Of a stretch of DNA of 42,240 nucleotides, positions 3,284 to 37,993 are shown in pieces. How positions within the stretch are numbered: position 1 is the stretch's first letter; the number at the start of each line of letters is the position of its first letter. The stretch is taken from the UHGV virus genome UHGV-0128348; one strand, written 5' to 3'. Source of the DNA: a virus. Made by a program: the position numbers and the translations under genes. Below the pieces are notes generated by a model, which was not told the origin of the DNA, did no database searches, and saw only the letters and a program-made list of their open reading frames with translations.

Positions 3284-3729
3284 TTCGCCAGCACCTCATC
3301 GATCGCCTTGTTCATTCTCTCCATCGCTACCTTTGCAGCCTCTTCCTGTCGGGTATCAAAAGCGGGGCGAACAAAAGGATGTGCCGGGGCCGTAGATGTT
3401 CCCAGCTCCACGAAGCGCCAGTAGAAAGCATTCCGCTTGTTGCTGGCCTTCATGGTGTTGTCGCTGTTCCCCGTTCGCGGATTAACGCCACGAATATGCA
3501 CCCCCGACGCGATTTCCCCACGGCGACGGCTTTTCTGGGTAACGACAACAACGTTTTTCTTCAGTTTTCCACTTTGCTCAGGAGCCCGATCAATCACTTC
3601 CTGCCGGAGGACTTCAGCCCCGGCCCGAGTAGAGTCCCGGAGGACTTTGTTGTTTTCGGCTTTGCTGAGGATTTGCAGGTCTCGGGCGATATCCTCTAAG
3701 CCGGAAAAATCCAGATTCACATCAATCAT
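3280..3729 (-). CDS. HK97 gp10 family tail component
   Basis: 149-aa ORF with ...FVRPAFD... motif and canonical position; 4-nt overlap with neighbours. Confidence 0.6.
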   Translation of the reverse strand: MIDVNLDFSGLEDIARDLQILSKAENNKVLRDSTRAGAEVLRQEVIDRAPEQSGKLKKNVVVVTQKSRRRGEIASGVHIRGVNPRTGNSDNTMKASNKRNAFYWRFVELGTSTAPAHPFVRPAFDTRQEEAAKVAMERMNKAIDEVLAK

Positions 3730-11009: not shown

Positions 11010-11273
11010 CTATGTATCGTCTCTTTCTGTAGCCTTCATCACATCATCAAAGGCAGCTTCCTCGTTGTCCTCTGGGTCATCATAGCCATACAACTCATTG
11101 ATGCTATCCGGACCGTCTTCGTCGTCTTCGTCTTCGTCGTCTTCTTCTTCTACTTGGGAATCGTCATCTTCTTGAAAATCATCATCTTCTTGAGAATCAT
11201 CATCTTCTTGAAAATCATCATCTTCTTGAAAATCATCATCTTCTTGAAAATCGTCATCGTAAACATTAGACAT
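11010..11273 (-). CDS. highly acidic hexapeptide-repeat protein (candidate DNA mimic)
   Basis: 87-aa ORF MSNVYDDDFQEDDDFQ... with six EDDD(F/S)Q units then an Asp/Glu-rich tail; encoded by 18-bp tandem DNA repeats. Confidence 0.55.
   Translation of the reverse strand: MSNVYDDDFQEDDDFQEDDDFQEDDDSQEDDDFQEDDDSQVEEEDDEDEDDEDGPDSINELYGYDDPEDNEEAAFDDVMKATERDDT
11146..11259. repeat. 18-bp tandem repeat (about six units, TCATCTTCTTGAAAATCA) inside the acidic protein gene
   Basis: Five near-perfect consecutive 18-mers 11164..11253 plus partial flanking copies. Confidence 0.8.
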
Positions 11274-11391: not shown

Positions 11392-11598
11392 TTATGGACA
11401 GTTGGCCTTTACTGCTTTGTTAAGCGCCAGAATGTCGCGCTTGGTCTGCTTATCCAGCACATCGATATCGTGGTCAGTCAGGTAGATGATCCGCACCCAG
11501 TTGCAGGCCGTATCAACGACTACTGGGGCGGGTAAATCTTTCGCGCAGCTCGCGATCAACATAGTCATCGCCCATACGCTTAACGTCTTCCTGTACAT
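11392..11598 (-). CDS. candidate o-spanin (outer-membrane lipoprotein, Rz1-like) overlapping the i-spanin 3' end
   Basis: ATG at 11598 inside ORF 11392..11757; MYRKTLSVWAMTMLIASC... has signal peptide and lipobox-like IASC; runs past i-spanin stop in another frame. Confidence 0.45.
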   Translation of the reverse strand: MYRKTLSVWAMTMLIASCAKDLPAPVVVDTACNWVRIIYLTDHDIDVLDKQTKRDILALNKAVKANCP

Positions 11599-11794
11599 CA
11601 CTGGCCCCTTTCGTGACTTCAGCACGGCGTTCTGCCGCGGCGACAGTAGCAGCGGCGTTTTCTTCGGTACGCAGCTGTTCGGCTTTGGCTTCCGCCTTAC
11701 TTGTTCCGCGAGCATGACCGATGCCAAACGCGCCAGCGATAGCGCCCAGAATGACAACCACCAGCCCCGCGATAGCTTCTATTCCCATGATCAT
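11513..11794 (-). CDS. candidate i-spanin (Rz-like)
   Basis: 93-aa ORF with N-terminal TM helix then charged Ala/Glu-rich helical region; directly downstream of endolysin. Confidence 0.5.
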   Translation of the reverse strand: MIMGIEAIAGLVVVILGAIAGAFGIGHARGTSKAEAKAEQLRTEENAAATVAAAERRAEVTKGASDVQEDVKRMGDDYVDRELRERFTRPSSR

Positions 11795-12420
11795 CCCACC
11801 AGTACCGATTTTGCTTTCAGGAAGCGGGCGCGTCGGTCATCAATGCCGTTTTGCCCGCCGTTGATAATCTGGGTCACCCGCAATAAATCTCCGGGGTATT
11901 TCAAACACCCATTTGATGTGTAAAACCATGCTGCGCTGCGTGCCGCATTAATATCTTTCTCCAACAACTCAGGGTTGCTGACTAAATCCAGTTTCAGTGC
12001 ATTACCGCACTTCATATAATTTTCGAGGAAGGTGATCCCGATAATTCCACGCCCTCGGTATTTCCAGCCATCGCCCGCAGCCTTATTGCCAAAACGATTG
12101 TTGTAGACGAGATTAGCGATCGCTCGTTGACGTTCGATCGGTAAAACCTTTTCGTAAGTTTTACGCCCTAAGGTGTTCGCCTGGTCTTGCGTGATGCGCT
12201 TCACCTTCACAAAACCAGCCAGGCCGGCAACGCTATAGTTAAAACTTTCGACCATCTGGGTAAATGATGTGCTTTCGTGTCCACACTGCGCTATGAACAT
12301 CGCCTGATCGAGTGGAGCTGTAATGCCGAATTCTTTCATCGCAGCATCAATATGCGGAAACCAGCGCGCAGCTAACCCGGCGCTGATACCAGCCGCCCTT
12401 TGAAATTGTGATTGGTTCAT
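11791..12420 (-). CDS. endolysin, glycoside hydrolase family 19 (chitinase-like lysozyme)
   Basis: 209-aa ORF with ...CGHES... and ...YRGRGIIGITFLENY... GH19-type motifs; lies in the lysis cassette. Confidence 0.75.
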   Translation of the reverse strand: MNQSQFQRAAGISAGLAARWFPHIDAAMKEFGITAPLDQAMFIAQCGHESTSFTQMVESFNYSVAGLAGFVKVKRITQDQANTLGRKTYEKVLPIERQRAIANLVYNNRFGNKAAGDGWKYRGRGIIGITFLENYMKCGNALKLDLVSNPELLEKDINAARSAAWFYTSNGCLKYPGDLLRVTQIINGGQNGIDDRRARFLKAKSVLVG

Positions 12421-12698
12421 CAGTGCCTCAGTGCATCAACCAGTCGCGCCACATTCCCCCTGAACCAGAGAACCGCGCCGCAGATAAGAATGTTAGCCAG
12501 CACCACCAGCCAGTGGGATGACTCGTACAGACCAAACAGGAAACGGAAAGGGATGCTGGCATAAACCAGCACCATGAGATAAGCCAGAACGGATATGCCA
12601 GGACGGTGTCTCGCACTACCTCGTTGGTAGAACATCAATGCCAGCACAATGACGGCGCAAATGACTGCATTAGCCAGCGCTGAAGGATCATTTACCAC
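12420..12698 (-). CDS. small membrane protein (holin/antiholin-like)
   Basis: 92-aa hydrophobic ORF between holin and endolysin with overlapping start/stop. Confidence 0.5.
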   Translation of the reverse strand: MVNDPSALANAVICAVIVLALMFYQRGSARHRPGISVLAYLMVLVYASIPFRFLFGLYESSHWLVVLANILICGAVLWFRGNVARLVDALRH

Positions 12699-13077
12699 TT
12701 GAACCTCCTCCCCGGAACCGGGTCAGCATATTGAACAAGCTATTTAGATCCTGGCTGTTGAGAAACGTCAGAACTTTGATGATAAGCGCTGATATTAATA
12801 CGGCTCCCAACGCATCAAGCGGACGGTCGCTGTAGCCAGTCCAGCTTGAAAGCTTGGAACCCACCAGACCGGCGCCCAGAACACCAACAATGAATGACGT
12901 CATAAAGTATGCCACCAGCTTACCGCGCGATATGTTAGCTGCCGTGGCCACGTAAAAAACCGCCCCGGCGAACGCACCAAATACCACGCCGTAATCTATT
13001 CCGGTAGCCAGACCGAACATGCTAGCCCCCATCAGGCCGCCGGCCGCAACTGAAGTACCAGAGACAGGATCGGACAT
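12688..13077 (-). CDS. holin
   Basis: 129-aa ORF with about three predicted TM segments and charged C-terminus; first gene of lysis cassette. Confidence 0.55.
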   Translation of the reverse strand: MSDPVSGTSVAAGGLMGASMFGLATGIDYGVVFGAFAGAVFYVATAANISRGKLVAYFMTSFIVGVLGAGLVGSKLSSWTGYSDRPLDALGAVLISALIIKVLTFLNSQDLNSLFNMLTRFRGGGSSGK

Positions 13078-13122
13078 TTAGCCCCCTCTATTGCTGTGGA
13101 TCCTCTCAGAACGAGGGGAAAA

Positions 13123-13137
13123 TAGGATGGCCGCCAG
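13123..13137. repeat. 15-bp direct repeat TAGGATGGCCGCCAG, left copy
   Basis: Identical 15-mer at 13736..13750; the pair brackets ORF 13320..13730. Confidence 0.7.
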
Positions 13138-13319
13138 GTGACAGCCACCAAAAATCACTGTAAAAATATCAGGATTCACCACCCTCTCAGACGGATTTAT
13201 TCTTCTTGTTCAGTCTCGTCCGCGTACGAAGCCAAGGATGTATCCAAGACCAAAACAAGAAAAACCGAATCCCACCAAGGGTAATACTGAATAAATAAAA
13301 TCAGGCATAGGGAAATCTC

Positions 13320-13730
13320 ATGGAAATTATTTCAGTAATCGGAGTGATACTGACACTGCTAGGGCTCTTTATTCCGTCACTAATCAGTAACCATTCGTCA
13401 CGTAAGGCAGAGTTCAGGAAGCATTCCGCACCACTGCGGGGAAAGTTGCTAAGCGAAATTGAGGCTATTGAAGGAGGCTCTTATCCATTCAGGCTTATCA
13501 GCGATGCTGATTTCAATCAGTTGCTACCTTACGCCCCGAGGCGCAGGAAAAACGCTCTCCTTGATGCTTACACCAGTTATCTCGACGCTCATACGATGGC
13601 CACCACGAAGCACTGGCACGATGAACATCCATCCGATGGAATGCTATTTTTCCCGACGGGTTTCTCAGTCACTAATTCAGATGAGGTACTGAAGAAAATG
13701 CAACCTCTGAAAAAAGAACTCAGCAGATAG
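13320..13730 (+). CDS. hypothetical membrane-anchored protein (plus-strand cassette between lysis genes and late cargo)
   Basis: 136-aa ORF with N-terminal TM helix; opposite strand to the late operon; plus-strand terminator at 13929..13957. Confidence 0.5.
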   Translation: MEIISVIGVILTLLGLFIPSLISNHSSRKAEFRKHSAPLRGKLLSEIEAIEGGSYPFRLISDADFNQLLPYAPRRRKNALLDAYTSYLDAHTMATTKHWHDEHPSDGMLFFPTGFSVTNSDEVLKKMQPLKKELSR

Positions 13731-13735
13731 TCCTT

Positions 13736-13750
13736 TAGGATGGCCGCCAG
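13736..13750. repeat. 15-bp direct repeat TAGGATGGCCGCCAG, right copy
   Basis: Perfect match to 13123..13137. Confidence 0.7.
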
Positions 13751-13928
13751 ATGGATTAACGACAAAGCACAGAGTGAATGATGCTCTGGTGGCACAAATA
13801 AAAAAGCCACGCAAATGCATGGCCTTGTGATTTGAATCCGTTATTTACAAAATGTATTCGAGACAGTATCTTTCGACTTCCGGACAAAAAAACATATACC
13901 GGGACAAAATCTAAATGTAACTGCCTTG

Positions 13929-13957
13929 CCTGCATGAAACCATGCGGGCTTTTTTTT
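13929..13957 (+). terminator. rho-independent terminator (plus strand)
   Basis: Hairpin CTGCATG-AAAC-CATGCGG followed by a T8 run. Confidence 0.5.
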
Positions 13958-13961
13958 GCCC

Positions 13962-13986
13962 AAAGAAAAAGCCCACCGAAGTGGGC
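13962..13986 (-). terminator. rho-independent terminator (minus strand), convergent with previous
   Basis: Hairpin GCCCACTTCGGTGGGC followed on the minus strand by TTTTTCTTT. Confidence 0.5.
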
Positions 13987-14363
13987 CTTACAGCTATCAT
14001 CATTTTTTATTAGGTGTGGTGCCGGGTGCCTCCCGGTGAGCATGCCCCAACAGACATCACTCGCGTGGTATTCACAGGGCTTTCGCTCTATTAGTTGGAC
14101 GCCCCTCCGCATAGGGGGATTCACCACACGGATAATTTAGGATGTAGTCATGGGCGGCGTCAATAACTGACACTCTGTCAAAGGCACCATTACGATGCCT
14201 TTTGCACAGTGCTAATCACTGGCTCTAATAAGGGGCCAGAGCAAAGCGATTACCCCGGCTACCAGCACGCCATCAGCCAGGATTGACATCATTTTGCTGG
14301 TGAAGTCGATAGCAACCACCAGAAACAAAAGCACCCCAGCTGCGGCCCAGCGAAGTTTACCGA

Positions 14364-14789
14364 TCACAGGTACTGGTCCAGTGGAAGTTGCAGAGCCTGG
14401 GCGATTTTCTTCAGCTGTTTCTCTTCTTCTTCCCCGATGCCGTCGTTATCAGCTACATCAAGACACAGGCAAAGAACATCGACAGCGTCATCCGTCCCGG
14501 CAACGTCAGCCAGTTCGCGCAGCGCCTGAGCGTTGGCTGAACGCGGTGATTCTTCATAGCGAGCGCGAATATTCGAGCTCATCTGGGCAATTTCACCAGC
14601 AAATGGCGCAAATGCCGGGAGGGCCGAAATAGTCTTCTCCAGCACTGCAATCTCTTTTGCATCGCAGGTACCATCAGCGTATGCAATCGAGTACGCTCCC
14701 CAGACCGTGGCTTCTACGGCATCGCGGTTTTCCATTTTTTTCACCTCAACAACGGCTTTACGGGCTTTCTTTTTAAAAATACCAAACAT
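14364..14789 (-). CDS. TerB-like (tellurite-resistance TerB family) protein
   Basis: 141-aa acidic ORF with ...YADGTCDAKE... and ...DVADNDGIGEEEEKQL... segments resembling TerB repeats; recalled similarity only. Confidence 0.45.
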   Translation of the reverse strand: MFGIFKKKARKAVVEVKKMENRDAVEATVWGAYSIAYADGTCDAKEIAVLEKTISALPAFAPFAGEIAQMSSNIRARYEESPRSANAQALRELADVAGTDDAVDVLCLCLDVADNDGIGEEEEKQLKKIAQALQLPLDQYL

Positions 14790-14920
14790 AGTGACTTTCC
14801 TTTTAGCGGGTGAGCCAGCGCTCAGGAATGATCAGCCCACAGAGACAGTCACACTGACTACTCCCTATGGCTCACCCCTGAAAGGCTCTGTGGTTTAATA
14901 GCGCCGAGCGTGGCGCGGAT

Positions 14921-15012: not shown

Positions 15013-16302
15013 TTACAACTCTCGGTAAGCTGGTTGCAAAGCTTCACACCATTGTCTTAAAGTCGAAGCTCTTCGTTTCTTAGTTTTATCGCTAAGCGAT
15101 AAGCACATATCAAACAAAAAAGGCTCCGCCGTTGTGGGATCTAGCTCTGAAAGATTTTTTGCCTGGCTCCATTGTATCCAAGCCCAACCACAATGACTGG
15201 CCTCAAAACCACGAGCCGCAATTCTTAATCTCTTTTCATGATCAGATTCAGCTAATTGTTGTCCCATTGCAGAGATTGAACCATTTTCATTAAGTAAACC
15301 TAGTATTTTACCTGCGTGTATATAGTACAGTATATGGCGAGTATCCAACCCTGTACTAATTAGATCGAGATATATCCCCTTCCATTTTAACTCTACAACT
15401 TTAAAAACTTGATCAATTAAATTTGCTTGGGGCACCTGATAACCGCCAACAACCTGGGCAGACATCTTAGCCAAAGCTGTTGAGTAAAACTCAGCATCCG
15501 TTTTTCGAACCGTTAATACAATCTCATCTGTATAGTTATTTTTCAATTCAAAACTTGAACTTGTATTAACAACAGAGTCAAATAAAGCCGAAAGCATTTG
15601 AACATCAATCTTATTATTTTTAATAAAACTAACTATATCACCCTTAAGACGAATCAGATCATTTAGCTCTTTTAATAACGGCTCTACTGTCTGCATTTTC
15701 TCTGCCTGAAAAGAAAGCACAAAAGATCCAGGGCGACCCGCCACTGGTCGCATCAAGTCCTTTTCATCAAAAGAGTTAATTATAGATGAATATAAGTTAT
15801 TGAAACATTCGAATAATTTAGAAACACCACTTAGTACTAATGGGTCCGTAGATGACTTAGTTTTCTCCACATGTATTTCATGCGTTGAAAACTCAATTGC
15901 CTTGCCTATTTTACCATTAGCTAAAACAGGCAGTACAGAGCTTATAAACAATCCACTTTGTGGCAAAGTCATGTTGTTAGATACTTCAGACGAATCTAAA
16001 GCCAATGCTACAACACGCTCATCCTCATAAAAAATATCTAACTGATAGTATTTCTTTTGTTCTTGGTGCATTAGAACGCTACGAATATCTATTCTTTTTC
16101 TTTCCAAAGATTCTAAGCGTTCAGCAGATATAGGAATGATGATCCACTTTTCGAAGTCATCAAAGTCCCCTAACCAATAAACAACAAAGAGACTATTTAT
16201 CTCATTAGTCACTGAGAAAAATTTTGGACCTTCGAAAAACTCATAGACATTTTCGTATTTTAGTTCACCAAACACGCTGTCTTTAAGGAAGATGTTACTC
16301 AT
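15013..16302 (-). CDS. hypothetical protein, 429 aa, second gene of AT-rich two-gene cassette
   Basis: Long ORF with low GC; 4-nt overlap with upstream gene; no Walker A or other motif I recognise. Confidence 0.65.
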   Translation of the reverse strand: MSNIFLKDSVFGELKYENVYEFFEGPKFFSVTNEINSLFVVYWLGDFDDFEKWIIIPISAERLESLERKRIDIRSVLMHQEQKKYYQLDIFYEDERVVALALDSSEVSNNMTLPQSGLFISSVLPVLANGKIGKAIEFSTHEIHVEKTKSSTDPLVLSGVSKLFECFNNLYSSIINSFDEKDLMRPVAGRPGSFVLSFQAEKMQTVEPLLKELNDLIRLKGDIVSFIKNNKIDVQMLSALFDSVVNTSSSFELKNNYTDEIVLTVRKTDAEFYSTALAKMSAQVVGGYQVPQANLIDQVFKVVELKWKGIYLDLISTGLDTRHILYYIHAGKILGLLNENGSISAMGQQLAESDHEKRLRIAARGFEASHCGWAWIQWSQAKNLSELDPTTAEPFLFDMCLSLSDKTKKRRASTLRQWCEALQPAYREL

Positions 16303-16745
16303 TTATCCAACCTCCTTATACAAACGAATTTGGCATGAACCTGAGATTCGTTGTAAAGCCATATTGTGTAGTGAGTTGAATCAGGAGCTCCAGTTTTTAG
16401 AATAACACCGTCATTAGCTGCAAACTCACCCTGAGCAACAAATCGCTCTCCAATACCATCAGGAAACTTATTAAAGGCATTAATAATTGAATTTTCATCA
16501 GTATAAACTGATACGCCATAACAACATTTTAGCTTATGCCCTTTAAATTTTTTTAATCGTTTAGGATTTTCATCTTTCATATTCAAAAAGCACTGATCCC
16601 CTGGAGGATTTGCCTTTGTAAGACGAAAGAATACACCTGAAGCATCTTGCGCTTCCTTAGGTGGAGTGCCCGCAGGGAAGTCCGCGGGAAACGTTAACGA
16701 TTTTTTATTTTTTGTCGTTTGCTGTGAGATTTGAGTCATGTCCAT
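16299..16745 (-). CDS. hypothetical protein, 148 aa, first gene of AT-rich two-gene cassette
   Basis: ORF preceded by about 300 bp of very AT-rich sequence; no signal peptide; no recognisable domain. Confidence 0.6.
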   Translation of the reverse strand: MDMTQISQQTTKNKKSLTFPADFPAGTPPKEAQDASGVFFRLTKANPPGDQCFLNMKDENPKRLKKFKGHKLKCCYGVSVYTDENSIINAFNKFPDGIGERFVAQGEFAANDGVILKTGAPDSTHYTIWLYNESQVHAKFVCIRRLDK

Positions 16746-17058: not shown

Positions 17059-17131
17059 TGCTGGTTGACGGAACTGAACCGCCTACATCCTGCTTACAAG
17101 GCAGGCGCTCTCCCAACTGAGCTAACCCAGC
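17059..17131 (-). tRNA. tRNA-like gene, anticodon UGU (Thr), with non-canonical features
   Basis: Minus-strand cloverleaf: acceptor GCTGGGT, D-arm GCTCAGTTGGGAGAGC, anticodon stem CCTGC/GCAGG with loop CTTGTAA, T-arm GGCGG-TTCAGTT-CCGTC; G6-A67 mismatch; G at position 58; no encoded CCA. Confidence 0.5.
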
Positions 17132-18171
17132 AAATTACGCATTTCCATGACCGTTTGATCAAATCGCTCGGTTTCCAGTTCAACACCGATTCCACTCCGC
17201 CCGAGCAGAGCAGCTTGCTTTAGTGTGGAACCCGAACCAGCAAAGAAATCAGCTACGACATCCCCTGGCCAACTGCTTGCAGTAATGATCTGCTGAAGCA
17301 TATCGGCAGGTTTTTCGCATGGGTGCTTACCTGGATAAAACTGAACCGGCTTATGTGTCCAGACGTCGGTATATGGCACCGTGACCGACACGCTAAATGG
17401 GCGCCGTAACCGGTAATACTCCTGCTGAAGTTCAGAATACTTCCGGTTAAGTGATTGCCAGGTAGCGACAAGCTGGTGGTGAGGTTTTCCCAGTTCGTTG
17501 CGTGAGTGCTTATCCATGGCGATTTTTTGAAACAAAGCCTGCAACTTCAAATAATCGGCTTCATTCGGCAGTTGCCACTGGCTAAGGCCAAACCAGTGGG
17601 AAACCATATTTTTTTTACCCGTGGCTTCTGCAATCTGGGCCGACGTCACGCCAAGAGATTCCCGGGCATCCCGGAAGTAAGAAATTAAAGGCGTCATGAC
17701 GTGTTGCTTTAACTCATTACACTTTGCGGCATATCCATCGTCTTTGGGCCTGTATGGCCCCTGATAATGGTCGGCAAAAATGATACGCTCAGTTGCGGGG
17801 AAATAAGCGCGTAAGCTCTCCTTATTGCAGCCGTTCCATCGCCCTGATGGCTTAGCCCAGATGATATGGTTGAGCAAGTTAAACCGCTCTCTCACCAACA
17901 GCTCAATATCCGCTGCCAGGCGTTGCCCACAGAAGAGATACATGCTGCCGGCAGGTTTTAACACTCGCCAGAACTGTGCCAGACAGCTATCCAGCCAACG
18001 TAAATAGTCCTCGTCCCCCTTCCATTGGTTATCCCAGCCGTTTGGCTTCACCTTAAAATAAGGCGGATCGGTAACAATAAGATCAATGGAGTTATCGGGT
18101 ATCGATGGGAGGTATTGCAGGCAATCAGCATTGATTAATTCAATACTGGATATTTTTACAGTATTTTTCAT
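17122..18171 (-). CDS. DNA N6-adenine methyltransferase (DPPY motif, Dam-like phage methylase)
   Basis: 349-aa ORF with N-terminal ...LIVTDPPYF... and C-terminal ...FFAGSGSTL... AdoMet motif; last 10 nt overlap the tRNA-like gene. Confidence 0.8.
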   Translation of the reverse strand: MKNTVKISSIELINADCLQYLPSIPDNSIDLIVTDPPYFKVKPNGWDNQWKGDEDYLRWLDSCLAQFWRVLKPAGSMYLFCGQRLAADIELLVRERFNLLNHIIWAKPSGRWNGCNKESLRAYFPATERIIFADHYQGPYRPKDDGYAAKCNELKQHVMTPLISYFRDARESLGVTSAQIAEATGKKNMVSHWFGLSQWQLPNEADYLKLQALFQKIAMDKHSRNELGKPHHQLVATWQSLNRKYSELQQEYYRLRRPFSVSVTVPYTDVWTHKPVQFYPGKHPCEKPADMLQQIITASSWPGDVVADFFAGSGSTLKQAALLGRSGIGVELETERFDQTVMEMRNLLG

Positions 18172-28584: not shown

Positions 28585-28650
28585 CCTCCACAGTTTTATC
28601 TGTATTTTTGAACAGATACTACTGTTTGTCAATCACAGTTTAAACTGTGA
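28585..28650. promoter_or_regulatory. OR-like operator/promoter region between cro and cI
   Basis: Clustered palindromes ACAGTTTTATCTGT, ATCTGT-N8-ACAGAT, perfect CACAGTTTAAACTGTG. Confidence 0.6.
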
Positions 28651-28677: not shown

Positions 28678-29310
28678 ATGAGCCTTGCAGAACGCGTAAA
28701 ACAAAAAAGAATCGAACTTGGTCTTACTCAAGAGCAAGCAGCTGAAAAGGCAGGAATAAGGCAACAATCATGGGCCAGCATTGAGGATGGAAAAACTAAA
28801 AAGCCTCGCAACATAGTAGGAATAAGCAAAGCACTTAAGTGCGACCCAACATGGTTGATGAACGGTGGGCCTTTCATGGCTCTGGACGATGTGAATTCAA
28901 GGAAAGTACCTTTGATCAGTTACGTCCAGGCTGGAGCGTTAGCAGAAAAACACCCTATTGATGCATTTGATGGTAGCTTCGAATACATCATGACTGACCT
29001 TGATATTTCTGAGTTTACTTTTGCACTAAGGATAGAAGGTGATTCAATGGAGCCTGACTTTAAAGAAGGCGACATTATCATTGTTGATCCAGAGTTAGAG
29101 CCCGTTCCGGGCGAATTTGTTGTTGCTAAAAATGGTGAAAATGAGGCTACTTTTAAAAAGTACCGTCCTACATTTACCGATATTTCAGGCCGCCAGCAAT
29201 ATGAACTGGTCCCCCTTAATGACGACTACCCCACCATTAATAGCTCTGAACGCCCGTTGAAAATTATCGGCGTAATGGTCGAACATAGAATTTACAGGCG
29301 AAAAAGGTAA
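28678..29310 (+). CDS. CI-like repressor (HTH plus S24 LexA-type autopeptidase domain)
   Basis: 210-aa ORF; N-terminal HTH ...LGLTQEQAAEKAGIRQQSWASIEDG...; C-terminal ...GDSMEP... Ser and downstream Lys; GGAGG RBS. Confidence 0.8.
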   Translation: MSLAERVKQKRIELGLTQEQAAEKAGIRQQSWASIEDGKTKKPRNIVGISKALKCDPTWLMNGGPFMALDDVNSRKVPLISYVQAGALAEKHPIDAFDGSFEYIMTDLDISEFTFALRIEGDSMEPDFKEGDIIIVDPELEPVPGEFVVAKNGENEATFKKYRPTFTDISGRQQYELVPLNDDYPTINSSERPLKIIGVMVEHRIYRRKR

Positions 29311-29410: not shown

Positions 29411-29455
29411 ACAGTTTTGACTGTTGACGCATTAACAGTTTTATCTGTATTATTA
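29411..29455 (+). promoter_or_regulatory. OL/pL-like promoter with overlapping operators
   Basis: TTGACG (29424..29429) and TATTAT (29448..29453) with operator half-site repeats ACAGTTTTGACTGT and AACAGTTTTATCTGT. Confidence 0.55.
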
Positions 29456-36473: not shown

Positions 36474-36680
36474 ATGCTGAGCCTCGATTGTGTTCCCATC
36501 TCAACTTATTGCAAAGAGACAGGCGAAACCCCTGATGCCATAAATAAGCGCATCCAGCGCGGCGTATGGCGTGAAGGGGTACAGGTGCTAAAGGTCGAAG
36601 GCGTTAAGGAAAGATGGATAGATCTTAGTGAGGTTGCAAAATGGGCTCGACAAAATCGCCTAAACTCCCGCGCGGCGTAA
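36474..36680 (+). CDS. xis: excisionase
   Basis: Small basic ORF directly upstream of and overlapping integrase; start at second ATG with GGAG RBS. Confidence 0.55.
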   Translation: MLSLDCVPISTYCKETGETPDAINKRIQRGVWREGVQVLKVEGVKERWIDLSEVAKWARQNRLNSRAA

Positions 36681-37831
36681 CGATCAGGAAACATAGTACT
36701 GGGGAAACTATCAATATTACCTTTACCTATAAGGGGGTGAAATGCCGGGAACCTTTATCAAACCTTGAAATTAATAGCAAAAACATTAAATACGCCGAGC
36801 GAACACTCGGCGAAATTCACAATAAAATTGAGCGGGGTACATTCAATTATGGTGAACACTTTCCCCGTTCGGCACGACTTAAAATATTTGGTAATTCTTC
36901 AACAGGAAAAACGGTAAAAAATTATCTCGATGAATATCTTGTAATTTGTGAAACGAGAAAATTATCTCCCTCAACAATCGGCGGATATAAGAAATGTTTA
37001 AATGCTCTGGCATCACTTCACGTTTTTCCTGCCAGCGAATTAACACCTGCTGCTTTAAAAACATGGATCCAGAGTCAGAAAACGACATTAAAGACGATTA
37101 GGAACCAACTTTCATTCCTACGCTCAGCACTGGATGAAGCTGTGACTGATGGTGTATTGCAGATTAACCCTGTTTCACTGGTGACAGCCTCGCGCTACCA
37201 GAGTAGTAAAACCGAGGATGAAAGTGATTATATTGTTGATCCGCTTTCGCCAGCCGAGGTTGAAGCGCTTTTGCATGCCGCAGGTAACAAGCAGTGGGAA
37301 AACATATTCCGCTTTGCAATTGAAACCGGGCTACGTAGTTCTGAACTCTGCGCCCTCCGTTGGCGCGATATCGACTTTATCGGCAAAACAGCGCATGTGC
37401 AAAATGCCAGCGTAGTGGGGGTAATTAAGGGCACGAAAACTAAAGCTGGAACACGTAAAGTTGAGTTAACCGAAGAAGCCTTGTATGCCCTGACTTCTCA
37501 GAAGCCTTTCACCTTTATGAAAGATGCAACGATCTTTGAGGATCCTAAGACAGAAAAACCATGGGCGGGTGCCGATGCGATAAGAAAGAAAGCCTGGGTG
37601 CCAACTTTACGTAAAGCTGGGATCAGGTACCGTAATCCATACCAGACCAGGCATACGTTCGCGACCCGACATATAAGTCGTGGCGCTAACCTGTTCTGGC
37701 TGGCATCACAGATGGGACATAAAGGGCCAGAAATGTTGTTCAGGCATTATGGACGCTATCTGAAGGAGTATGACGGCAACACTGAAAAACGACCCAAGCT
37801 GGTCAGCGGTGGAACCTCAAAGGAGCCGTAA
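36641..37831 (+). CDS. int: tyrosine integrase (lambda Int family)
   Basis: 396-aa ORF with C-terminal catalytic region ...RHTFATRHISRGANLFWLASQMGHKGPEMLFRHYGRY...; adjacent att core. Confidence 0.85.
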   Translation: MGSTKSPKLPRGVTIRKHSTGETINITFTYKGVKCREPLSNLEINSKNIKYAERTLGEIHNKIERGTFNYGEHFPRSARLKIFGNSSTGKTVKNYLDEYLVICETRKLSPSTIGGYKKCLNALASLHVFPASELTPAALKTWIQSQKTTLKTIRNQLSFLRSALDEAVTDGVLQINPVSLVTASRYQSSKTEDESDYIVDPLSPAEVEALLHAAGNKQWENIFRFAIETGLRSSELCALRWRDIDFIGKTAHVQNASVVGVIKGTKTKAGTRKVELTEEALYALTSQKPFTFMKDATIFEDPKTEKPWAGADAIRKKAWVPTLRKAGIRYRNPYQTRHTFATRHISRGANLFWLASQMGHKGPEMLFRHYGRYLKEYDGNTEKRPKLVSGGTSKEP

Positions 37832-37955: not shown

Positions 37956-37993
37956 AAAAAGCCTGCAACTTCAACGAGTTGCAGGCTTTTTTG
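37956..37993 (+). terminator. rho-independent terminator (probable native ssrA terminator)
   Basis: Hairpin GCCTGCAACT-TCAACG-AGTTGCAGGC flanked by A6 and T6. Confidence 0.65.

Follow-up and report, generated by a model that had tools for sequence, protein, structure and literature searches.

A 15-bp direct repeat brackets a two-gene cassette in the late leader-holin interval of a Klebsiella-type lambdoid prophage

Examples of morons, in the concept of Juhala and Hendrix, are the stx, transfer RNA (tRNA) and small RNA (sRNA) loci that Stx prophages and other lambdoid prophages carry between Q and S, and the model of lambdoid modular exchange places short conserved boundary ('linker') sequences at the junctions between modules. 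Here, we analyzed a two-gene cassette bracketed by a perfect 15-bp direct repeat in the virus genome UHGV-0128348 (42,240 nucleotides (nt); this whole stretch of DNA is referred to below as the window, its first letter being position 1), which is a lambdoid prophage of the Klebsiella type. The cassette is found between the late leader RNA STnc100 and the holin gene. In E. coli prophages, STnc100/PasD-type sRNAs lie beside the Q antiterminators and PasA/PasC beside the holin operon (bioRxiv 10.64898/2026.05.13.724894), so that the cassette locus corresponds to the known variable late leader-lysis interval.

The locus is an instance of known phage mosaicism, with a moron at the Q-lysis junction and joints at terminator-type hairpins. 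More specifically, the cassette in the late leader-holin interval is probably of the moron type, and the 15-mer pair a recombination joint rather than a pair of attachment (att) sites. Similar to lambdoid morons, the cassette is an extra block that is missing from near-identical relatives at the same position of the late leader-lysis interval, is lower in GC content, and has a predicted sigma-70 promoter and a terminator hairpin at its edge. Unlike them, it holds two divergent genes instead of one gene between promoter and terminator, its -35 element lies inside a terminator hairpin of the opposite strand, and 15 bp of the target border are duplicated around it. The comparison with linker sequences is likewise partial: GGCCGCCAG, the hairpin arm that forms part of the 15-mer, and the hairpin element named X below stand at junctions of unrelated modules, with crossovers inside them (L016, and L111/L116 versus L051; such numbers denote the loci compared), whereas here the linker doubles as arms of RNA hairpins and terminators, and the cargo lies between two copies of one border.

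The locus illustrates, at single-base resolution, how accessory genes are brought into the late-operon leader of lambdoid prophages and shifted within it: crossovers fall in terminator-type hairpin arms common to different modules, and the short duplications left behind may pass for att sites or target-site duplications. Two further features are missed by current annotation, namely a strongly conserved gene for a 32-residue membrane protein, back-to-back with the gene for an uncharacterized 136-residue membrane protein and directly upstream of the lysis genes, and the conserved hairpin X of about 60 nt, which precedes many holins that are unrelated to each other. The established view of phage mosaicism is not altered by either.

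The repeat pair and the sequences it joins

The first-pass annotation had described perfect 15-bp direct repeats around a plus-strand gene for a 136-amino-acid (aa) membrane protein, on the strand opposite the late operon, and this description was confirmed. TAGGATGGCCGCCAG occurs on the plus strand at 13123-13137 (copy 1) and 13736-13750 (copy 2), and the open reading frame (ORF) between them (13320-13730, +) is opposite to the holin and endolysin genes (11791-13077, -). No other copy is present in the window when up to two mismatches are allowed, and the 15-mer is not a dispersed motif; a partial third copy inside the ORF (13592-13609, 72% match) was taken as chance. In second-order Markov simulations, exact direct pairs of 15-mers arise anywhere in 42 kb with a mean of 1.5 (at least one pair in 64% of simulations), and a pair within 1 kb in 2%. 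The observation of the repeat stands, but the argument is carried by comparative data and not by statistics. Both copies are invariant in more than 30 independent cassette-bearing loci, wherever the locus extends to them, while the adjoining bases vary, including in Klebsiella michiganensis L070, whose locus is 88.8% identical overall. The missing copy 1 of L020/L095 does not represent another junction, as an insertion of the IS5 family cuts off the cassette there.

Copy 1 consists of TAGGAT followed by GGCCGCCAG and lies immediately next to the end of the holin leader. In RNA of the late (minus) strand, this copy provides the 3' arm of a terminator-like hairpin (13126-13149, -; 10 pairs, -16.5 kcal/mol), which is followed by CUAUUUUCCCC, with AUCCUA separating the U-tract from the stem. 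The 136-aa gene has orthologs with 51-77% identity in E. coli, Kosakonia, Leclercia, Mixta and uncultured viral contigs, and the orthologous cassettes are always placed between the antiterminator/leader region and the lysis module, on the opposite strand and beside at least three holin families. Eight of these cassettes (68-77% protein identity; E. coli, Kosakonia, Leclercia and viral contigs) open on the holin side with an A-run and GGCC(G/A)CC-loop-GGCAGCC(T), a canonical late-strand terminator whose loop and 3' arm contain the promoter -35 element TTGGCA. This hairpin is not seen in the intact orthologs that diverge most (Mixta L037, L098 and L102; 51-55%). The window hairpin is homologous to the minus-strand terminator of the orthologs, AGGCUGCC-loop-GGYGGCC-U6, a hairpin shared by orthologous cassettes of five genera. 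The GGCCGCCAG part of copy 1 is therefore intrinsic to the cassette, and only TAGGAT, equal to the border of X, is foreign. At the orthologous cassettes themselves, flanking repeats of at least 9 nt in a sensible position were not found, and none of them has X on the right. As a separate observation, the Leclercia locus L035 carries the terminator hairpin AAAAAGGCCGCC-loop-GGCAGCCT on both sides (2805-2828 and 3655-3678) of an insert that combines the cassette with a tRNA-like sequence and the remnant of a holin leader of the PF16931 type, which looks like a second case of a terminator duplicated around inserted material.

Copy 2 opens the X element (13736-13796, -), a hairpin with its stem at 13743-13751/13785-13793, of which copy 2 forms the left edge and the outer stem arm. 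Outside cassette carriers, database matches to 13100-13800 start at copy 2, and from 13737 on the X sequence reads GGCCGCCAGAT(G/T)GATT(A/T)ACGACAAAGCAC...TCTGGCGGCAC. At least 12 different left-hand contexts of X are present in IMG/VR. Most of these contexts, read in the late direction, have an intrinsic terminator immediately before X (the E. coli-type L005, L053 and L064 lack it), and unrelated holin genes follow X at a short distance. Natural X borders before GGCCGCCAG read TAGGAAT, TGGGAAT, TGAAT or TAGAAA; copy 2, TAGGAT included, is therefore the native left edge of X. X folds into a long hairpin (z = -5 in L067). The X loci compared were found with a pattern in which one stem arm was kept constant. 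Moreover, L016 carries the cassette and the left half of X joined to a different right half, and cassette carriers show three different sequences after X; crossovers therefore fall inside X too.

As to the identity of X, Rfam gave no family over X (13737-13799) or over the cassette, the adjoining STnc100 being the sole match. X was found in 1 of 5426 E. coli genomes and is therefore probably not one of the common PasA/PasC sRNAs. A reading of X as a peptide ORF was ruled out by eye, as the commonest open frame gains a stop in GTCGTAAATC variants. Further occurrences of X were noted at L004 (~2003-2063), L005 (~2003-2060), L067 (7895-7960) and about 20 other loci.

That the bracketed segment is a discrete insertion, as previously suggested, is borne out by L067 (IMGVR_UViG_3300045988_046400), whose holin and leader are of the type seen in the window (73% identity over 11396-13140). 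There, the holin leader continues directly into ...GAGGGGAAATTAGAAAGGCCGCCAGATGGATTAACG..., that is, into X with the single copy TAGAAAGGCCGCCAG and no cassette, and L067 7895-7913 aligns to both copies of the window. A precise empty site would read GAGGGGAAAATAGGATGGCCGCCAGATGGATTAAC, in place of the left junction ...CAGGTGACAGCC and the right junction ...TCCTTTAGGATGG. The single-copy allele called for in the first-pass annotation thus comes from a distant relative, with 13 of 15 positions matching, and the near-identical cassette-less prophages (L075 type) contain no copy of the 15-mer. An exact 15-mer site free of the cassette is present neither in IMG/VR nor in the metagenome collection, and the empty-site pattern matched L067 only; in the same collections, no other cargo was found between pairs of the 15-mer.

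A second phage background is provided by the metagenome contigs L111 and L116, whose cassette belongs to the same lineage, with 95-97% identity to window 13127-14915. On the left side of ATGGCCGCCAG, these contigs have a different leader and lysis module, ...GGGCCTGTATGA being followed directly by ATGGCCGCCAGATAGCAGCC..., and this leader is the one that flanks X in phages of the L041/L051 type. The matching empty site is found in L051, in which the 13 nt ATGGCCGCCAGAT can be aligned with either copy of L111. The right copy of L111 reads TAGGAT as in the window, and its left border is of the L051 type (tgaAT). These borders are what one crossover in the shared arm would leave if copy 1 of a window-type donor recombined with X in a phage of the L051 type; an independent insertion would not produce them. 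The proposal of a recombination-site pair can accordingly be retained in the sense of short-homology crossover points, as in L111/L116 versus L051, but not in the sense of a dedicated recombinase site, given the lack of inverted repeats, of a recombinase and of an empty allele with the exact 15-mer.

Among close relatives, it is a larger block that varies. Among published phages and prophages of Klebsiella that encode the identical holin protein, homology ends at 13120-13122 and resumes at 14015-14017, the left end against cassette-less relatives being the base before copy 1. The polymorphic block (13121-14014) is replaced by a single 53-bp terminator in the near-identical prophages L075, L071 and L074, with flanks in L075 that are 97.3% and 98.0% identical, and by a different filler of 190 bp in L076. 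The unit of exchange among close relatives is therefore 894 bp, against 628 bp between the repeat ends, and is itself composite, its 13797-14040 part being shared with other Klebsiella phages. The cassette is present in 6 of the 10 contexts with the identical holin protein and absent in 4. Its GC content is 45%, compared to 52-53% in the lysis genes and TerB/DUF3927. In every intact context examined, it lies between the Q/leader region and the holin, Mixta L036 having an element of the IS21 family of insertion sequences (IS) at the holin's place.

For the origin of the repeat, we infer the following order of events, with ordinary short-homology exchange as the process involved. A crossover in the GGCCGCCAG arm shared by the cassette terminator and X would have joined the holin leader plus X border to the cassette, and a second join of low homology, at about TA(A)G, would have reattached the far end of the cassette to the start of X, leaving the X border on both sides of the cassette. 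The resulting pair would then permit further short-homology exchange, in which any phage with X could cross over at copy 1 or within X, and such exchange could move the cassette between lysis modules and between right-hand modules. At the right end, homology to the Kosakonia ortholog extends to about TCCTTTA(A)G, which includes the first 2-3 bases of copy 2.

Several points weigh against this scenario. The right junction offers only 3-4 nt of possible microhomology, deduced from one ortholog (Kosakonia). L067, the only empty site with this holin leader, is a distant relative whose lysis genes are 73% identical at the nucleotide level and whose single copy has 2 mismatches in 15 positions; the event would therefore be old and its order not reconstructable. 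X may have a function of its own that could explain its conservation. In addition, the perfect identity of the two 15-mers, both of which are arms of late-RNA hairpins, could reflect selection or gene conversion, and the promoter, the antisense relation and the lysogen-versus-lytic pattern described below for the cassette genes are predictions.

Alternative explanations for the two identical 15-mers

The best of the alternatives takes up the possibility of selection or gene conversion: the two copies would be kept for function, as identical hairpin arms recognized by a common factor or required for an RNA fold, for example in shielding the holin from read-through in the lysogen. Each copy is indeed the 3' arm of a hairpin in the late transcript (terminator-like for copy 1, X for copy 2), both are invariant in more than 30 loci amid varying neighbours, L070 included, and the stem of copy 1 extends 3 nt into TAGGAT by pairing with ACC, in which the orthologs differ. 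However, the orthologous cassettes work without the repeat pair, and the tgaAT border of L111/L116 indicates that the full 15-mer is not needed on the left. In addition, the AUCCUA spacer makes the copy 1 terminator weaker rather than better and the copy 2 stem contains an A-C mismatch in the late-strand RNA. We therefore consider maintenance for function unlikely.

Far less probable is that the 15-mers are attL/attR-like cores of a site-specifically mobile cassette, comparable to an integron cassette or a satellite, whose recombinase is encoded elsewhere. The perfect direct repeats around discrete cargo, the single-copy sites in L067 and L051 and the occurrence of the same cassette at the same point of X in two phage backgrounds would be in line with such an element. 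Against this, no recombinase lies in or beside the bracket, which contains only the 136-aa and 32-aa ORFs, neither of them with a family match, and the sole integrase of the window (36641-37831) is found at the prophage end. Terminal inverted repeats are absent (the left end matches the reverse complement of the right end over 4 nt at most), and a scan of the cassette for repeats gave no terminal pair. Moreover, an empty site with the exact 15-mer is missing from the collections searched, close relatives lose a different and larger block, the 15-mer brackets no other cargo, and the L111 copies bear the borders of two parents, as from one homologous crossover.

The same comparison distinguishes the locus from the target-site duplication of a transposon or miniature inverted-repeat transposable element. 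Direct repeats around an insert and a single copy in empty sites are shared features, but the cassette has no terminal inverted repeats, transposase or dispersed copies, 15 bp is an unusual length for such a duplication, and 9 of these base pairs are part of the hairpin that the insert itself carries. Genuine IS insertions in the cassette (IS1 in L072, IS5 family in L095 and IS21 in L036) have a very different appearance.

The remaining explanation, that two unrelated GC-rich hairpin arms share 15 bases by coincidence, can draw on the number of exact pairs expected in 42 kb and on a common terminator-arm sequence that accounts for 9 of the 15 bases, but is the least credible of all given the rarity of pairs within 1 kb, the position of the copies exactly at both homology breakpoints defined by L067 and the identity of TAGGAT as an X border and not a terminator arm.

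The divergent genes of the cassette

Both ORFs of the cassette are coding. The 136-aa protein (13320-13730, +) is predicted to consist of an N-terminal hydrophobic transmembrane helix, a basic stretch and a helical bundle (AlphaFold2 pLDDT 81.6), and its structural neighbours are generic helical bundles only. It has no match to a known family and falls into only 25 clusters among 1.84 billion representatives; the exact protein is nevertheless present in 1479 blocks of a public assembly index, mostly from Klebsiella genomes. The second gene, unannotated and on the strand of the late operon (13210-13308, -), encodes a 32-aa small membrane protein, MPDFIYSVLPLVGFGFSCFGLGYILGFVRGRD. All 11 distinct orthologs have 32 codons, their variable columns are distributed over the codon positions as 16/7/29, and they share the C-terminal motif CFGLGYI(I/L/F)G(F/Y)VRGR(D/E). 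The Shine-Dalgarno sequence is of the GAGG type in the E. coli, Leclercia, Mixta and viral-contig orthologs and GAGA in the window. The ORF is frameshifted in Kosakonia L034 and L093 and broken by IS21 in Mixta L036, and no family in Pfam or NCBIfam matches the peptide. Independent IS insertions in the cassette comprise an IS1 in the 136-aa gene (L072), an IS5-family element cutting at window position 13449 (L020/L095) and the IS21 in the Mixta 32-aa gene (L036/L101).

The two genes are divergent, with start codons 9-12 bp apart across the cassettes and 11 bp apart in the window. A sigma-70 promoter is predicted for the 136-aa gene (13138-13167, +), with its -35 element GTGACA (13138-13143) inside the copy 1 hairpin and an extended -10 element, TGtAAAAAT, at 13159-13167; of the 13 intact orthologous cassettes, 12 retain the -10 block CTGTnnAAATATCAGG. 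This conserved -10 element lies beyond the stop codon of the 32-aa gene, which implies that the 5' leader of the 136-aa mRNA, about 145 nt long, would be antisense to the entire small gene. With such a leader, the two genes would probably be expressed in a mutually exclusive manner.

The claim that the cassette has its own terminator did not hold. No plus-strand terminator lies in the bracket, the hairpins at 13126-13149 and 13803-13826 being of the minus-strand type, nor does any stand between the end of the 136-aa gene (stop codon at 13730) and copy 2. Downstream of the gene, a good plus-strand terminator is first met at 13928-13957 (+), beyond the bracket and in a different module. The Kosakonia and Mixta orthologs have a terminator right after the stop codon.

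We infer a pattern of transcription in which the 136-aa gene would be transcribed from the sigma-70 promoter within the terminator hairpin, presumably in the lysogen, and the 32-aa peptide would presumably be made from the Q-antiterminated late transcript, the two transcripts interfering with each other as mutual antisense RNAs. Such an arrangement resembles type I toxin-antitoxin systems and the 'excludon' in that a gene for a 32-aa hydrophobic peptide is fully overlapped by a predicted antisense transcript, and in that the ribosome-binding regions of the two cassette genes are mutually complementary. Moreover, the 11 orthologs with their 16/7/29 distribution identify the peptide as a small hydrophobic peptide under purifying selection. 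It differs from type I systems in that the antisense RNA would be the leader of a conserved protein mRNA and not a dedicated sRNA, in the lack of a known toxin family for the peptide, and in the frameshifts of L034 and L093. Candidate roles of the cassette would include lysis timing, exclusion or a toxin-antitoxin-like activity. Only tentatively, and as a doubtful extension of these predictions, we propose a hitherto undescribed two-gene developmental switch that would be maintained at the Q-holin junction of lambdoid prophages throughout Enterobacterales. In it, the lysogen would express the 136-aa protein, and the long 5' leader of its mRNA would silence the 32-aa peptide by full antisense overlap until Q-antiterminated late transcription overrides it. 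The pair would act on lysis timing or as a type I toxin-antitoxin-like or exclusion module, and X would be a dedicated short-homology 'socket' for the transfer of such cassettes from phage to phage.

Neighbouring features of the prophage

On the lysis side, the cassette is followed by the PF16931 holin gene (12688-13077, -), a second holin gene (12420-12698, -) and a GH19 endolysin gene (11791-12420, -); the first holin and its leader (13078-13120) form the left homologous flank of the insertion (12688-13120, -). Within this leader, a CCCCUC...GAGGGGG hairpin would sequester the holin Shine-Dalgarno sequence and is kept in L067, L106 and phages of the L075 type. The alternative modules all join the leader at a terminator U-tract.

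To the right of X, a minus-strand intrinsic terminator (13803-13826, -), whose U-tract runs on to about 13797, begins the 244-bp block 13797-14040. Several other Klebsiella phages carry this block at 98-99% identity directly beside different holins. The motif CGGACAAAA(T)C recurs in the block and also on the right-hand side of the cassettes of Kosakonia (L034) and L102. On the plus strand, a promoter-like TTTACA-17-TATCTT (13844-13872) is followed about 55 nt later by the strong terminator at 13928-13957, which together (13844-13957, +) would give an sRNA-sized unit of about 80 nt. The late-leader sRNA STnc100 (Rfam RF02076; 13958-14152, -) matches its family over the full length with 96 bits against a gathering score of 47, its terminator lies at 13968-13989, and a promoter-like site is present at 14163-14134. 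Further upstream in the late sense are DUF3927 (14212-14367, -), TerB/TciA (14364-14789, -) and an N6 methyltransferase (17122-18171, -).

Between the methyltransferase and TerB genes, a PD-T4-10-like pair with 37% GC is inserted (15013-16302, -, and 16299-16745, -), with PADLOC matches to PD-T4-10_B (E 1.5e-5; also DUF6575 and DUF7226) and PD-T4-10_A (E 1.7e-11). This candidate anti-phage defence pair is found in L006, L008 and L075 and is absent in L007 and L015.

Two further perfect 17-bp direct repeats were noted in the window. ACAGTTTTATCTGTATT occurs at 28590-28606 and 29435-29451, around a 210-aa ORF (28678-29310, +) of the early/immunity region, and may represent operator-type sites. 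AAAGCCTGCAACTTCAA occurs within the methyltransferase gene (17534-17550) and just past the integrase gene (37958-37974); this pair may be chance, as about 1.5 such pairs are expected per window. Finally, tandem arrays lie just downstream of the lysis genes (11114-11258), with a period of 15 and 2.5 copies at 11114-11150 and a period of 18 and 5.6 copies of 95% identity at 11159-11258, and ORFs are open on both strands there.

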